64,000 nt of DNA from positions 864,001-928,000 of the forward strand of contig OZ242318.1 in NCBI GenBank assembly GCA_965208105.1. Direction: 5' to 3'. The notes beneath the pieces were generated by a model. That model saw nothing but the letters and a program-made list of their open reading frames with translations, had not been told where the DNA came from and did no database searches. The position numbers were made by a program, and so were the translations under genes. The stretch comes from Candidatus Latescibacterota bacterium (lineage in GTDB: Bacteria > Latescibacterota > UBA2968 > UBA8231). Each line of letters begins with the position of its first letter. Positions within the stretch are counted from its first letter, which is position 1. This document shows positions 1,281 to 4,954 of the stretch, piece after piece.

Positions 1281-2132
1281 ATGTTGAGCCCAGGCCAGGT
1301 CGCCGAGTACCACCAGAAGGGATACACCGTCCAACCCGGCTTCCTGAGCCCGGAAGCGGTGGAGGACATATTGGCCGAGGTCGGAAGGATCATCGGCGGC
1401 AGCACCCTCGCCGATCACGATGAATCGCGGATGGAAATGGAGCCGGAGCAGCCGCCGGAGGGCACCATGGTGCGGCGGCTCTACGAGCCCTGCACCCACT
1501 ATCCCCTGTTCAGAGAGCTCTCCGAGTCCGAGAAGCTGGGAAACTCGCTTGAGCAGTTGCTGGGGTCCGACCTGATGTTCCACTACAGCAAAATCAACAT
1601 GAAGCCTTCCGAGATCGGCTCGGTGGTGGAATGGCACCAGGACCTGCCCTACTACCCGCTGACCAACCGTGACTCGCTGGCGGTGCTGTTCTACCTGGAC
1701 GATGCAGACCGGGAGAACGGCTGCCTGCAGGTCCTGCCCGGGCGCCACCAGGGTCCGGTCCTCGGCCACATGAGCAACGGCTATTTCCAGGGCAAGGTGG
1801 TCGATGAGATGGACGCTTCCGAAGCCACCCTGGTGGAGGGCAAGGCCGGCAGCGCGATTTTCATGCACTGCATGACCCCACACGCCTCCATCGCCAACCG
1901 CTCTCAACGCGACCGGCGCACCCTCATCCTCAGCTACCGGGCGGCCGACGCCTATCCCCTCTACCACGGGGAGATGACCCTCCGCATCGAGTCCAACGCG
2001 CGGCTGGTGCGCGGTGAACGGGCCCCGACGGCGCGCTTCACCATGAAGGAGTTTCCCATTCCCCTCCTGAAGGGGAAAAGCTCCTCGCTCTACAAGCTGC
2101 AGGAGCGCTCCAGGGCGGGGGAAATCCGCTAG
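1281..2132 (+). CDS. PhyH family dioxygenase
   Basis: EWHQD, DADRENGCLQVLPGRH, TPHAS, RRTL; AGGAG RBS upstream. Confidence 0.9.
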   Translation: MLSPGQVAEYHQKGYTVQPGFLSPEAVEDILAEVGRIIGGSTLADHDESRMEMEPEQPPEGTMVRRLYEPCTHYPLFRELSESEKLGNSLEQLLGSDLMFHYSKINMKPSEIGSVVEWHQDLPYYPLTNRDSLAVLFYLDDADRENGCLQVLPGRHQGPVLGHMSNGYFQGKVVDEMDASEATLVEGKAGSAIFMHCMTPHASIANRSQRDRRTLILSYRAADAYPLYHGEMTLRIESNARLVRGERAPTARFTMKEFPIPLLKGKSSSLYKLQERSRAGEIR

Positions 2133-2265
2133 ACAAAACCGCGCCGGAGCGCTGCCTGATCCGGCGCGGGATCCGCGCATCACGGCAGGTAACGGGTCGT
2201 CTCCTCCTTCGGTGCAGATCCGCGGCTCTGGCCTTCTACCCGGATTCCGAAGCCTGCATCCCTTC

Positions 2266-2799
2266 CTATTCGCGCTCCTCCTCGTCGTGGTCGTGATCCT
2301 GGTCGGTATCCTCTCCAGGACCGCCTTCCTCGACGTGAATCTCGATCTCCTTGGAGACAAAGTCGGCGTGGCCGGCGTGGTTGATCTTGAGGACGATGGT
2401 TGTGTGCCCCTCTTCCAGGCCCACGATGTGAAAAGACCAGGGTCCATCCAATTCGTGCTGCTCGAACTCGGCGATGCTCTCGTCGTCTATCTCCCAGCCC
2501 AAGGAGAAGCCCTCCTCCGCATCGGGAACGAAGAGGTCGCCGTCCTCGGCGATGAAGCGCACGTTGAGCAGGGCGGTCTCCTTGCCGTGACCCACCTCGA
2601 TTTCTCCTTCGACCTCGCCGTTCTCGTAGCGCACGATCTCCTCGCCGCTGCTGCGGATGATCAGGCCTAAGGCTTCGGCGTGCTCCTCGTCGTGGTCGTC
2701 CGTATCGACGGGATTGTCATCATCGCCGCAGGCGGCGATGAACAGGGCGAGTGCAAATATTCCGAAAGTGGGACTGAACTTTGTGATGTTCCTGAGCAT
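2266..2799 (-). CDS. His/acidic-rich lipoprotein, probable metal-binding protein
   Basis: Signal peptide with lipobox FIAAC, then DTDDHDEEHAEA, internal HAGHADF, C-terminal DHDHDEEERE; GGAG RBS before ATG 2799. Confidence 0.75.
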   Translation of the reverse strand: MLRNITKFSPTFGIFALALFIAACGDDDNPVDTDDHDEEHAEALGLIIRSSGEEIVRYENGEVEGEIEVGHGKETALLNVRFIAEDGDLFVPDAEEGFSLGWEIDDESIAEFEQHELDGPWSFHIVGLEEGHTTIVLKINHAGHADFVSKEIEIHVEEGGPGEDTDQDHDHDEEERE

Positions 2800-2956
2800 G
2801 ATCTGATTCTCCAATTGTTGAATTTTCGCGGACCCTTCCGGGACCCGCCATCGAGTAATGGTACAACGGCCTGGAGGTAGGAGCACGGCAGGATGCATCA
2901 TGCGGCAAGCCTTCACTGCTTCCTCGTCCGGACCGACGAAACGATGAGTGGAGAAC

Positions 2957-2999
2957 GCATCCTGGGCGCCCGGAACGCCGGTTCCGGCGGCGCGGATGC
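2957..2999 (-). promoter_or_regulatory. GC-rich hairpin directly after the RAPP leader stop codon
   Basis: Nested inverted repeats GCATCC/GGATGC, GCGCC/GGCGC, CGGAAC/GTTCCG. Confidence 0.55.
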
Positions 3000-3314
3000 T
3001 CAGGAGCAGGGTGGGGCGCGGTTACTGCAGAAAAAGCCGCAGAAGAACAGCAGCAGGGGGACCGACCAGAGTACCGGGGAGCGGCCCCGGCACCCGGGTC
3101 GGATGAAGTACAGGAACAGGATGAAAAGGGATAGCAGTACCAGACTGCTCTCCAGCATGTGCACCGGGCAGGACTCGGGTTCGCCGGGGCCCTGGTGGAA
3201 CAGCTGGTGGCTCAGCGGCAGGGCCAGAAAGATACCCAGGAGGAGAGCCGCCAGGGCCAGACCGGCCAGGCGGGCCGGGCGGCGCTGAAGGGCTATGGTG
3301 AATCGAGGGTTCAT
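3000..3314 (-). CDS. DUF2946/CruR-like membrane leader peptide with C-terminal RAPP arrest motif
   Basis: Hydrophobic helix, HQLFH...CPVH segment, second hydrophobic stretch, C-terminus ...CSNRAPPCS*. Confidence 0.7.
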   Translation of the reverse strand: MNPRFTIALQRRPARLAGLALAALLLGIFLALPLSHQLFHQGPGEPESCPVHMLESSLVLLSLFILFLYFIRPGCRGRSPVLWSVPLLLFFCGFFCSNRAPPCS

Positions 3315-3324
3315 CGGCTGGGCT

Positions 3325-3357
3325 TAATATAGGGTCTCGCACGAGAAAATGCGAGAC
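3325..3357 (-). promoter_or_regulatory. Palindrome GTCTCGCA-N8-TGCGAGAC next to a TATATT -10-like hexamer
   Basis: Perfect 8-bp arms at 3334-3341 and 3350-3357; TATATT at 3330-3325, 10 nt before the leader ATG. Confidence 0.45.
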
Positions 3358-3523
3358 ATCCCCTGCCTGCCACCAGCGGTCCGAGGGAATGGCTGACATG
3401 CCCACAGCAACCGGGGATGGACGCTGGCCGGGGCGGGACTCGGGATGCAACCCGGTCCACTCCGACGGAATGCCCGGGTTCTCCCGAAGGGGTTGGGCCG
3501 CGGCAGCAGCGCGGCCCCTTTCA

Positions 3524-4954
3524 TCAGGGCGCGACCTGGAAGGAATAGAGCTTTGCCCGCCGCATGCTGAAGCGCAGGCGCAGCGGTTGAGCGATCTCCC
3601 CTAGCTTTCCGCCTCCGCTCCATACCACCTGATGATCTAGCGAGTCCCCTTCAATGACCCTGCATTGCTCGCGGGTAAAGCCGGCCACGGGCTCGCCGTA
3701 GAGGGTGAGGGCCTCGACCTGCAGCGATCCTCCGCGGGCGTCGGCGTTCAACCTCAGGGCGCGGCCGCCGTCGAAATGCAGCGGCTTGGTGGTGAGCGTC
3801 CCTTCCCTGTCCCCGGCGGCCATGGAGGCGAATCCGTCCAGGCGCAACCGGGCCAGGCCCAGCTCGTCTCCCCTCATCTCGCGCCCGTTCCTCCTCGTCC
3901 CCATCAGCTCGGAGATCTGGATGTGGGGAATGTTGGAGCCGCGGTAGTAGAGCCGGATCTCATCATCCCCCACCTGGGCACAATCGAGATAGACCCGTTT
4001 CTCGTCCCATCCCCCGGTATCGCCGGAAAGAAAGGCCTGGCGCTCGCCCACGCGGGTCCAACTCCTGCCGTCGCGGCTGCATGCGAGCTGCACGTTCAGG
4101 GTGAAATTGAGCCCCTCCAGCGGCCGCTCGTCCCCGGTGAAATGGTAGAAAACGATCACGAACCCGATATAACAGCCTTCGTAGCGCAGGACGGGCATGT
4201 AGTAGAACTCAGTCCCTGGTCCGTCGACCTCGTCCGGTACCACGACCTCTTCGAGATCGGTCCAGTGCTCGAAGTCGATGCTCTCGCTGCGCCCGATCCG
4301 CCGCGTCGGGAAGGCGCTCTCGTCCGCCGTCCCGGTCCAGCGTTTCACGTGGTGGCCGTTGGGCCGCATGTAGAGGACGTAGCGGCCGCAGCGCTCGTCC
4401 CAGAAGACCGCCTGGCCGCCGTCGCCGGTGGGCGCGATGACCGGGTTTCCCTCGTAGGCGGACCAGGTCAGGCCGTCCCCGGAAAAGGAGACCCCGGCGC
4501 CGTGGGTTTTCGCCACGAAGTGCACCATCTTGAAGCGCCGCCGGGGATCGGGGTCGCGCAGATCCTGGATCACCGCCTTGTCATGAGCGAAGCCTTGCGG
4601 AGTCGAAACCAGATTGTTGTCCTTGCTGCCCTGGAAGTCCACCAGGCCGAGGCAGGGCCGCTCGAAGTGGATCCCGTCCTCGGACGTCGCGTAGCACAGG
4701 CCGGGACCGGGCACGCTGTACCAGAGCTTGTAGATCCCCTCCTCCTGGTCGAACAGGAGGTCGCAGTAGAGGAAGCGCCCCATTTCCCAGGGCCTGTCCA
4801 TGACCAGGATGGGATTGGCCCCGTCCTTCTCGGGCCGCTCCACGAAGCGGGAAACTCCCTCCCTGAACGCAACCAGGTGATCGTCTATGAATAGCTGCCT
4901 CTCGCGGCCGATCCTTACCACCTCGGGCAGGCGTTCTACTGCCTCCTCTGCCAT
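3524..4954 (-). CDS. Five-bladed beta-propeller glycoside hydrolase-like protein (GH32/43/130-like)
   Basis: RQLFIDD, YATSEDGIHFERP, DPDPRRRFKM, SRDGRSW, LARLRLDGFAS; strong GAGGAGG RBS. Confidence 0.75.
   Translation of the reverse strand: MAEEAVERLPEVVRIGRERQLFIDDHLVAFREGVSRFVERPEKDGANPILVMDRPWEMGRFLYCDLLFDQEEGIYKLWYSVPGPGLCYATSEDGIHFERPCLGLVDFQGSKDNNLVSTPQGFAHDKAVIQDLRDPDPRRRFKMVHFVAKTHGAGVSFSGDGLTWSAYEGNPVIAPTGDGGQAVFWDERCGRYVLYMRPNGHHVKRWTGTADESAFPTRRIGRSESIDFEHWTDLEEVVVPDEVDGPGTEFYYMPVLRYEGCYIGFVIVFYHFTGDERPLEGLNFTLNVQLACSRDGRSWTRVGERQAFLSGDTGGWDEKRVYLDCAQVGDDEIRLYYRGSNIPHIQISELMGTRRNGREMRGDELGLARLRLDGFASMAAGDREGTLTTKPLHFDGGRALRLNADARGGSLQVEALTLYGEPVAGFTREQCRVIEGDSLDHQVVWSGGGKLGEIAQPLRLRFSMRRAKLYSFQVAP

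Follow-up and report, generated by a model that had tools for sequence, protein, structure and literature searches.

CruR (Bp2923) of Bordetella pertussis, the prototype of the DUF2946 family (PF11162), carries a CXXC motif, the sequence RAPP three residues from its end and an export signal, and takes part in the Rho-dependent control of a TonB receptor, with a CXXC-to-RAPP spacing of 45 residues that varies by no more than one or two residues, according to PMC9426467. CutF of Rhodobacter capsulatus, also placed in DUF2946, undergoes a copper-bound stall at its C-terminal Pro-rich motif, and the stalled ribosome melts a stem-loop shielding the ribosome-binding site of the next gene, as outlined in PMC9973294 and bioRxiv 10.1101/2025.02.05.636593; CutF-like clusters with His or mixed Cys/His motifs, located beside other metal genes, are also described in the text of PMC9973294. 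The locus analysed here comes from a Candidatus Latescibacterota bacterium (assembly GCA_965208105.1) and lies in a stretch of 64,000 nucleotides (nt), positions 864,001 to 928,000 of contig OZ242318.1, hereafter called the window. It contains an open reading frame (ORF) of 104 amino acids (aa) with the C-terminus NRAPPCS, hereafter called the leader, followed on the same strand by the gene of a His-rich lipoprotein.

It is proposed here that this ORF is a CutF/CruR-like metal-sensing arrest leader, in which the stall would prevent a long-range RNA helix from masking the start of the lipoprotein gene, with expression favoured when the metal, probably zinc, is scarce; a probability of about 0.6 is given to this reading. 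The principle has well-known precedents in SecM-secA and MifM-yidC2, where the RNA structure hiding the downstream Shine-Dalgarno (SD) sequence is broken up by a ribosome that has stalled close to the end of an upstream ORF, and where the arrest is released by force acting on the nascent chain during membrane targeting. RAPP and RGPP are the most robust, EF-P-refractory arrest cores in the main text of PMC12992588, in agreement with the initial annotation of the window, which had taken RAPP for a ribosome-stalling motif, and R(A/G)PP is enriched there towards the C-terminal ends of small proteins, membrane-bound or secreted, that are encoded upstream of TonB, YcnI, PCuAC and PepSY genes. The ribosomes of both E. 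coli and B. subtilis are reportedly arrested by RAPP (PMC10951233). Zinc and Latescibacter are not mentioned in the main text of PMC9973294, and neither zinc nor lipoprotein nor stem-loop in that of PMC12992588, negatives that cover these main texts and not the supplementary lists. Similarly, a literature search for arrest peptides together with zinc gave no paper describing one, the supplementary lists of the survey papers lying outside that search.

The leader protein and its predicted arrest motif

The leader gene occupies positions 3314..3003 with its TGA stop codon at 3002..3000 (feature 3000..3314, on the minus strand, like all the features given below), and it encodes a small membrane protein with a putative sensor loop and a C-terminal arrest motif. 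The first hydrophobic segment, L16-L34 (19 residues, 3213..3269), is preceded by R4, R11, R12 and R15 and passes a crude hydrophobic-window filter; following the positive-inside rule, it is probably an N-in/C-out membrane anchor. The putative periplasmic sensor loop (residues 35-53, 3156..3212) has the sequence H36-Q-L-F-H40 ... E45 ... C49-P-V-H52, with H36, H40, E45, C49, P50 and the variable H52 as its distinctive residues. The second hydrophobic segment, L54-I71 (3102..3155), which is followed by R72, R76 and R78 and is retained in all leader alignments, is probably a second transmembrane (TM) helix, TM2, taking the chain back to the cytoplasm. The predicted arrest motif N98-R99-A100-P101-P102 (NRAPP, 3009..3023) is part of the terminal NRAPPCS-stop. 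A third TM helix at residues 84-96 was considered and rejected because this stretch is non-hydrophobic in divergent members (L040-L051) and would sit inside the exit tunnel during arrest.

The description in the initial annotation of a 104-aa ORF with two hydrophobic stretches, HQLFH...CPVH and an NRAPPCS end holds in all its details, and the hairpin that it had placed at 2957-2999, at the leader stop, begins at the base after that stop. The lipoprotein gene (2266..2799, 177 aa plus stop), reported there as 200 nt downstream with HDEEH, HAGH and DHDHD patches, has these patches, and its ATG at 2799 is exactly 200 nt from the leader stop.

The combination of features in the leader is unique in its genome and goes beyond what chance would give. 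Among 41,671 whole-genome stop-to-stop frames of at least 60 aa, R[AG]PP occurs in the last 14 residues of 109 (and A[AG]PP in 95), and the window leader is the only one of those 109 frames that is also 50-220 aa long and contains a strongly hydrophobic 18-residue segment. As a small (<300 aa) membrane or secreted protein that has a RAPP/RGPP core close to its C-terminus and is encoded upstream of a putatively regulated gene, the leader fits the description of arrest peptides in the main text of PMC12992588.

Conservation of the leader and of its pairing with the lipoprotein gene

Leader homologues were found in 16 clusters with a word-index search, and a six-frame search found the leader in 49 of 168 genomes of the phylum, with representatives in 14 of 49 genera; its own family accounts for 46 of these genomes, out of 75. 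Two copies are often separated by ~1.1-1.4 kb, and the genome of the window has a single one. A profile of 25 diverse leaders retrieved 82 clusters (50% identity, E <= 0.001) among 1.84 billion proteins, almost all of them 90-110 aa long and aligned through to the RAPP end; a metagenome scan with the leader alignment gave 7 loci only. The sources of the homologues include names such as Latescibacterota and Gemmatimonadota, and the database copies are mostly unnamed, the few named ones being 'hypothetical protein'.

From the fetched loci, 67 distinct leader sequences were gathered, and 52 of the 66 measurable ones are 103-104 aa long. In the 25 diverse leaders, P33, C49, R99, P101 and P102 are invariant, and H36, L38, H40, E45 and P50 are at least 90% conserved; in the extended family of 77 members, C49 is again invariant, with conservation of 90% or more at H36 and H40. 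The arrest core is RAPP in 29 of 66 copies and RGPP in 37, and it is followed by two residues in 59 of 66 copies, three in four, four in one and seven in two. The conserved Cys lies 50 residues from the R(A/G)PP Arg in 58 of the 64 scored copies (range 48-52), and the stretch between the second helix and RAPP is free to vary in sequence while remaining constant in length. The HxxxH...CxxH sensor of the initial annotation is thus borne out for H36, H40 and C49, to which E45 can be added, but not for its last His, as position 52 varies (H/C/Y/S/R) and 17 of the 64 scored relatives have CxxC at the C49 position (CPAC in 12, CPVC in 4 and CLSC in 1). The conservation of RAPP and of the His/Cys residues in homologues, which had been suggested as a check, was found for R(A/G)PP, H36, H40 and C49. 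The leader diverges far faster than the lipoprotein; in L040-L046, for example, the lipoprotein is 73-77% identical to that of the window and the leader has no tblastn match.

Synteny, also suggested as a check, was observed, with a leader match followed by a same-strand lipoprotein homologue in all 30 of the first-fetched loci. In the larger set (67 leader copies, loci L001-L059), a lipoprotein homologue starts 115-286 nt downstream of 55 copies, and five (L048-L051 and L053) directly precede a TonB-dependent receptor with CarboxypepD_reg and Plug domains. The remaining copies are followed by an unassigned gene (two, L042 and L047) or by a degraded lipoprotein gene (one, L019), or run off the fetched DNA (four). 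The expectation that a lipoprotein rather than a TonB receptor is controlled therefore stands for most copies, and needs amending for relatives in which a receptor follows the lipoprotein or the leader itself.

Several loci depart from the simple arrangement. Tandem leader-lipoprotein pairs are present in L016, L018-L030, L039 and L056 (genus g12), as in L025 at 1489-3295. The leaders of copy A have HQLFHESL..E..CPAY, and those of copy B have HQLCHE(G/S)H..E..CPAC, thus containing a CxxC and additional Cys and His residues; the metal specificity or affinity of A and B may not be the same. In L023, copy B has an HGSHGSHGSH repeat inserted into the sensor loop. In L017, the leader match spans residues 19-96 only, and no intact ORF ending in R[AG]PP was found. 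The leader of L055 (1037-1501, minus strand) lacks the usual stop after RGPP and continues for 7 residues (..NRGPPALVHPRW); a helix between its stop region and start region is not predicted (-6.4 kcal/mol, with 223 of 300 shuffles equally good), and this copy may be in decay or may reflect a fault of the assembly. L057 (398-1422, minus strand), from another family of the phylum, has a very divergent 95-aa leader (..HNHEDAHVHHDCPVH.., with the end RRAPPPAYS) ahead of a distant relative of the lipoprotein (CIFDDEKDDP...DHFEAEGIVLVD), and the leader-lipoprotein pairing is therefore older than the family of the window.

RNA helices joining the leader end and the lipoprotein start

Three helices, P1, P2 and P3, can be drawn between the end of the leader and the start of the lipoprotein gene. 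The 5' strand of P1, UCC (Ser104) UGA (stop) GCAU (2996..3005), pairs with the lipoprotein start region, its 3' strand being AUG CUC AGG A (2790..2799), that is, the start codon and the next 7 nt. In the folding of the spacer, 3005..2996 is the exact complement of 2799..2790 (window helix UCCUGAGCAU:AUGCUCAGGA), and the inverted repeat 2787-2799 / 2996-3008 covers 13 nt with 92% complementarity. P2 is the local hairpin (2957..2999) that begins at the base after the leader stop, with GCAUCC:GGAUGC at its base and the consensus GCAUCCGCAC:GUGCGGAUGC; with short flanks (3008..2949) it has a folding energy of -28.3 kcal/mol (z = -2.0), a stability equalled by 7 of 200 shuffles. Directly after P2, the 5' strand of P3 is an anti-Shine-Dalgarno sequence, GUUCUCCA (2949..2956), of which UUCUCC (2955..2950) pairs with the SD sequence GGAGAA of the lipoprotein gene (2807..2812); pair counts for P3 refer to this UUCUCC core only, leaving out the flanking G and A. 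The loci were treated in three classes. In class I, P1 and P2 share GCAU and are mutually exclusive over those 4 nt, and in class II, P1, P2 and P3 are contiguous, so that one junction is possible, burying the SD sequence and the spacer up to the AUG.

The pairing of P1 is rebuilt from different sequences in different lineages. It is UUCUGAGCAU:AUGCUCAGAA in L002 and GGCGCUA:UAGCGCC in L015. In L037/L038 it consists of 14 perfect pairs (CUUCUAAGCAUCUG:CAGAUGCUUAGAAG) including the stop UAA and its partner UUA; in genus g12 (GGUGCUAGU:ACUAGCACC) the stop is UAG and its partner lies in the spacer between the SD sequence and the AUG. In L012-L014 (CGUUUCAU:AUGAAACG) three residues follow PP and the strand starts right after the Pro codons. 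The stop codon thus co-varies within P1, UGA with UCA, UAA with UUA and UAG with CUA. Furthermore, the receptor genes of L048-L051 start with AUG CUC (A/G)G., complementary to the ends of their own leaders. The cognate duplexes of leader tail and start region have energies of about -16 to -24 kcal/mol, and the cross-class duplexes about -4 to -12.

Within the classes, the pairs are also well kept. In the 23 sequences of class I, 89% of the P1 cells are paired, with three pairs changed on both sides, and 93.1% of the P3 cells, with none changed on both sides; sliding the partners by 1-3 columns lowers the paired share of P1 and P3 together to 35-50%. For P2 in the same sequences, 96.9% of the cells are paired and four pairs are changed on both sides (12-56% paired when slid). 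In the 20 sequences of class II, the 24 pairs of P1, P2 and P3 are 99% paired, with three changed on both sides (31-43% when slid) and P3 at 100%. None of 500 shuffles reached the observed paired percentage or covariation score in class I or class II, figures that overstate significance and are not to be read as probabilities because the aligned rows are related, those of class II coming mostly from one genus. The stronger argument for P1-P3 is the compensation between classes. Taken together, selection for P1-P3 is well supported by these sequence comparisons. Against 300 dinucleotide shuffles per unit, P1 was beaten by at most 3 in 30 of the 51 distinct units, the window scoring 4 of 300.

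Predicted ribosome position and folding simulations

Ribosomes translating RAPP peptides reportedly stall with the first Pro codon in the P site and the second in the A site. By analogy, the leader is predicted to stall with its Pro101 codon (3014..3012) occupying the P site and that of Pro102 the A site. Given that stall, the ribosome is estimated to reach ~15 nt past the first P-site base, to about 2999, and would cover 7 of the 10 bases of the P1 5' strand and at most the first base of the hairpin. The structure that such a ribosome would break is therefore P1 and not the hairpin arm, which revises the idea of the initial annotation that the stalled ribosome covers the 5' arm of the hairpin. 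In all three classes, the P1 5' strand begins 3-9 nt after the first P-site base.

The effect of the ribosome was simulated by forcing its footprint to be unpaired and computing the unpaired probability of the start region (-15..+5) in 51 units. The mean openness is 0.32 in the free RNA and 0.40 with a ribosome at RAPP, and the gain reaches 0.15 or more in 13 of 51 units; for a control ribosome 15 codons upstream, the mean was 0.30 and 1 of 51 units showed a gain of this size. The average effect in these folding simulations is modest, with none for the window, and they are not taken as a disproof, given how poorly long-range helices are predicted. The switch could have either sign, depending on the ribosome position at which the SD sequence opens.

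The lipoprotein and its metal context

The lipoprotein has the lipobox LFIAA|C, and its mature N-terminus (CGDDDNPVD...HDEEHAEA) is followed by a predicted Ig-like (immunoglobulin-like) beta-sandwich and an acidic His-rich tail. Its homologues form at least 128 clusters, mostly unnamed and otherwise named hypothetical protein, in which H115, H124, H141, H144 and D146 are invariant and H40 nearly so. No family was found in Pfam (E <= 1) or NCBIfam, the UFD1_N1 match at E 0.083 being at chance level. The AlphaFold2 model (predicted local distance difference test, pLDDT, 83; predicted template modelling score, pTM, 0.69), in which the first ~40 residues and the tail are disordered, resembles SbsC (Z = 10.5, root-mean-square deviation 2.6 over 94 residues) and LigA (Z = 9.3) among known structures, and a Foldseek search gave generic Ig-like domains only, at E = 2e-4 to 3e-4. 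The modelled fold is therefore Ig-like, and such a shared fold carries no functional information. There were no YcnI-, CopC- or PCuAC-type chains among the structure matches listed, which does not by itself exclude those folds.

The same genome has a second copy of the lipoprotein, 71% identical and outside the window (L060 6519-14865, equal to G000:C1:2836518-2844864), in a zinc-type cluster with a Fur-family regulator, a decayed leader remnant, the lipoprotein, a TonB receptor, a ZigA-type GTPase, an ORF of 128 aa assigned to no family, a second COG0523 GTPase and a WD40 protein, in this order. The ZigA-type GTPase (L060:10624-12006) scores 629.6 bits, above the NF038288 cut-off of 600, and the best NCBIfam match of the receptor is ZnuD (NF038289), at 165 bits, far below the cut-off of 950. 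The Fur-family gene matches PF01475 and no Zur-specific model. The leader remnant (...VPLPLYSPRFTHLNRGPPRC, followed by read-through) has lost the H-x-L-x-H part and its stop, and retains ...RFTHLNRGPPRC.

Relatives show similar neighbourhoods. The order is leader and TonB receptor in L062, and leader, lipoprotein and TonB receptor in L063 and in genome G105. In L061 (genome G128) it is leader, lipoprotein, leader, lipoprotein remnant, receptor, permease, COG0523, WD40 and ZIP, the permease belonging to the SO_0444 family of Cu/Zn efflux, and a CDF gene and another ZIP gene adjoin the cluster. The sensed metal is likely zinc, because in relatives these modules occur together with genes for ZnuD-like receptors, ZigA, ZIP and Fur-family proteins, and because of the H/H/E/C ligand set.

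Proposed mechanism and alternative explanations

In the proposed mechanism, the leader would be a small inner-membrane protein anchored N-in, in which H36, H40, E45 and C49 sit on a short loop in the periplasm, ahead of a second hydrophobic helix, and the arrest core R(A/G)PP would lie at the end of a cytoplasmic tail, with two residues left before the stop. P1, P2 and P3 together would mask the translation start of the lipoprotein gene. A ribosome arrested with Pro101 in the P site would occupy the P1 5' strand, so that P1 could not form and the lipoprotein start would be open; on release, termination would follow three codons later, P1 would re-form and translation of the lipoprotein would stop. 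Metal bound to the H/H/E/C loop may alter the insertion or folding force on the second helix and thereby set the release. Scarce metal would then mean arrest and expression, and the presence of metal would mean release, as in CruR; expression under scarcity is favoured here because the controlled genes in relatives resemble zinc-uptake genes. We infer the arrest itself, the topology, the identity of the metal, the sign of the response and the assumption that opening P1 suffices to open the SD sequence. A more ambitious version is offered as a tentative possibility that we would not favour at present: that this is the first zinc-responsive arrest peptide, a two-helix hairpin binding Zn(II) in its periplasmic H/H/E/C loop, whose arrest is set by insertion force and acts over 115-286 nt of mRNA on a three-helix junction that pairs the leader stop codon with the start region of the following gene, with a hitherto unrecognised family of His-rich Ig-like lipoproteins and ZnuD-type receptors working in zinc capture and tandem copies of differing ligand sets giving graded or metal-specific responses.

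Several observations weigh against the proposed arrest switch. In the window, the start-region openness is 0.48 in the free RNA and 0.44 with a ribosome at RAPP, which does not support unmasking, and the openness of the SD sequence is 0.02 when free, 0.01 when stalled, and 0.31 only with a ribosome at the stop codon. P1 is unpredicted or at the level of shuffles in 21 of the 51 units (among them L005, L007, L012, L034, L044, L047, L051-L053 and L055), the 261-nt fold taken across the spacer is ordinary as a whole (z = -0.82), and P1 is missing from the minimum-energy fold when more leader sequence is included. PF11162 gave no match to the window leader at E <= 1. Additionally, no receptor or zinc gene follows the lipoprotein of the window, so that the zinc link comes only from paralogues and relatives, and the lipoprotein could sequester or detoxify the metal rather than acquire it, inverting the expected sign.

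The rise in SD openness in the window from 0.02 to 0.31 with a ribosome at the stop, and not with one at RAPP (0.01), is what would be expected of termination-coupled translation with the opposite sign, in which only ribosomes that have completed the leader and stand at its stop melt P1 and the 5' arm of P2, open the SD sequence and permit initiation or re-initiation, so that arrest at RAPP throttles the lipoprotein and its release turns expression on. In classes I and II the stop codon is itself part of P1, no more than 10 nt from the partner of the start codon, which agrees with it. This alternative is nevertheless considered unlikely, as plain coupling does not need the short fixed distance of two residues from RAPP to the stop (59 of 66), in class III the P1 5' strand comes directly after the Pro codons and excludes the stop, termination is brief relative to arrest, the published RAPP and CutF systems induce through stalling, and a ribosome at RAPP raises the mean openness of the start region over the 51 units (0.32 to 0.40). 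Another possibility is Rho-dependent attenuation as in Bordetella CruR, with the stall blocking the loading of Rho on the 200-nt spacer, release leading to termination before the lipoprotein gene, and the helices serving the stability of the RNA or the access of Rho. Among studied relatives that control an uptake gene, the closest, CruR, works in this way with a 162-bp spacer (in the account of PMC9426467), the spacers here are long as well (115-286 nt), and no intrinsic terminator was found between leader and lipoprotein in a scan of 2100-3700. It appears rather improbable as the sole mechanism, since the spacer is highly structured and G+C-rich and hence a poor Rho loading site, and the covarying helices engage the SD sequence and the start codon, pointing to the control of initiation; both mechanisms could coexist.

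The leader could also be a stable working membrane protein, for example a metal-handling partner, in which RAPP is tolerated or slows translation and P1 is an ordinary coupling that keeps the product ratio. Conservation across the whole leader and beyond the tail, two hydrophobic helices and a ligand loop suited to a small metal-binding membrane protein, and a position always adjoining the partner gene are all compatible with such a role. There is little to recommend it when it is considered that RAPP/RGPP is strongly avoided in bacterial proteomes except in arrest peptides (as stated in the main text of PMC12992588), that the stretch between helix 2 and RAPP is constant in length and variable in sequence, as fits a spacer spanning the tunnel, that the same type of leader precedes two unrelated genes (lipoprotein and receptor), that the leader diverges much faster than the lipoprotein, and that a degraded leader remnant persists beside the intact paralogous lipoprotein.

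Promoter region and other features of the locus

A -10-like hexamer, TATATT (3326..3331), lies 11 nt before the leader ATG as a candidate promoter, without an SD sequence in between (3331..3326 to the ATG), and TATAAT-like hexamers occur ~11-13 nt ahead of the ATG in several relatives, such as L016 and L018. This absence and the similar placement of the hexamers suggest a nearly leaderless transcript for the leader. Just upstream of the hexamer, the perfect palindrome GTCTCGCA-N8-TGCGAGAC (3334..3357), read from the sequence, could be an operator. The upstream regions of relatives have other inverted repeats at this position, without a common sequence, and inspection by eye found no Zur-like operator that the leader promoters share. 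Upstream of the L057 leader there is an AT-rich palindrome resembling a Fur box. A consensus promoter scan of 2100-3700 gave no promoter-like sites, and a terminator scan of the same region gave three terminator-like sites, all within coding sequence and none in the spacer.

Pfam and NCBIfam searches with the leader returned no family, and an Rfam search of 2200-3600 returned no match at E <= 1. The gene upstream of the leader (3524-4954, minus strand, 476 aa) has no Pfam or NCBIfam match at E <= 1. Downstream of the window lipoprotein, a convergent gene encodes a PhyH-family dioxygenase, and the local module thus consists of the leader and the lipoprotein only. Public runs holding 2200-3600 or parts of it come from sponge, marine and coral-reef metagenomes, and none is on record as RNA.

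Relation to known systems

The description of CruR and DUF2946 leaders in the initial annotation, which paired CXXC with RAPP in the regulation of metal uptake, is correct in the light of PMC9426467, as far as that account goes. The membership of the window leader in DUF2946, which was to be checked by a hidden Markov model search, did not come out that way, as the leader had no hit and is linked to the family only through distant relatives. The six-frame translation of the whole genome also has no PF11162 match at E <= 10. In the extended family, 13 of 77 members match at E <= 1 and 10 of 75 at E <= 0.05, and a single member, P0200, exceeds the gathering score of 23.7 bits, with 26.1 bits; the alignments are confined to profile positions ~46-117, the half from sensor to RAPP. 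Of the traits of DUF2946, the leader has RAPP near the C-terminus, a fixed Cys-to-RAPP spacing and, in its relatives, operons with metal genes, and it lacks the conserved CXXC. On this sequence evidence, the leader family is a remote, fringe relative of DUF2946, and the window protein itself is not a detectable member.

To our knowledge, copper is the only metal for which experiments have demonstrated control through arrest of a nascent chain, the cases being CruR and CutF. The module proposed here would extend it to a likely zinc system with a different ligand set, and to a poorly studied lineage whose DNA is found in sponge and marine metagenomes. The repeated compensation in the pairing of stop region and start region, with the stop codon included, would amount to a naturally validated switch and a design template for translational switches. 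The family of His-rich Ig-like lipoproteins, with at least 128 clusters and no annotation, would be a candidate for metal acquisition.

The leader resembles CruR, as the latter is described in PMC9426467, in being a small, probably exported upstream ORF that would head a metal-uptake operon, with a long spacer and with a Cys metal motif at a fixed distance from a RAPP placed 2-3 residues before the stop; its relatives also share with CruR the TonB-dependent receptors downstream. It differs in having H-x3-H...E...C at a spacing of 50 residues, whereas CruR has CXXC at 45, and in the second hydrophobic helix that separates the sensor from RAPP. CruR works by Rho termination in response to copper; in the module proposed here, helices would mask the SD sequence and the start codon in a zinc-type context. 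CutF, in the published descriptions cited above, shares with the proposed module a nascent exported sensor that stalls and an mRNA structure over the next ribosome-binding site that is melted by the stall. It controls a copper-detoxifying oxidase, with copper raising the stalling, and the spacers of CutF-like clusters are mostly <100 nt (main text of PMC9973294), compared with 115-286 nt here. The proposed masking by a three-helix junction, with a long-range helix between stop region and start region, also sets the module apart from CutF.

With ApcA, ApdA, ApdP and the Streptomyces lividans set, the leader has in common the arrest core, its C-terminal position in a small membrane protein and the location in an upstream ORF, and the leader family contains both RAPP and RGPP variants, as does that class of arrest peptides. 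In contrast to the leader, ApcA, ApdA and ApdP monitor Sec/YidC activity and not metals, and there is no similarity outside the core. SecM-secA and MifM-yidC2 differ from the module by their other arrest sequences and short spacers, and they sense secretion or insertion capacity and not a metal. The principle of the module is therefore already known from these systems; what is new is the ligand set, the two-helix build and the covarying pairing of stop region and start region over 115-286 nt, together with the zinc-type context, the lineage and an unannotated lipoprotein family.

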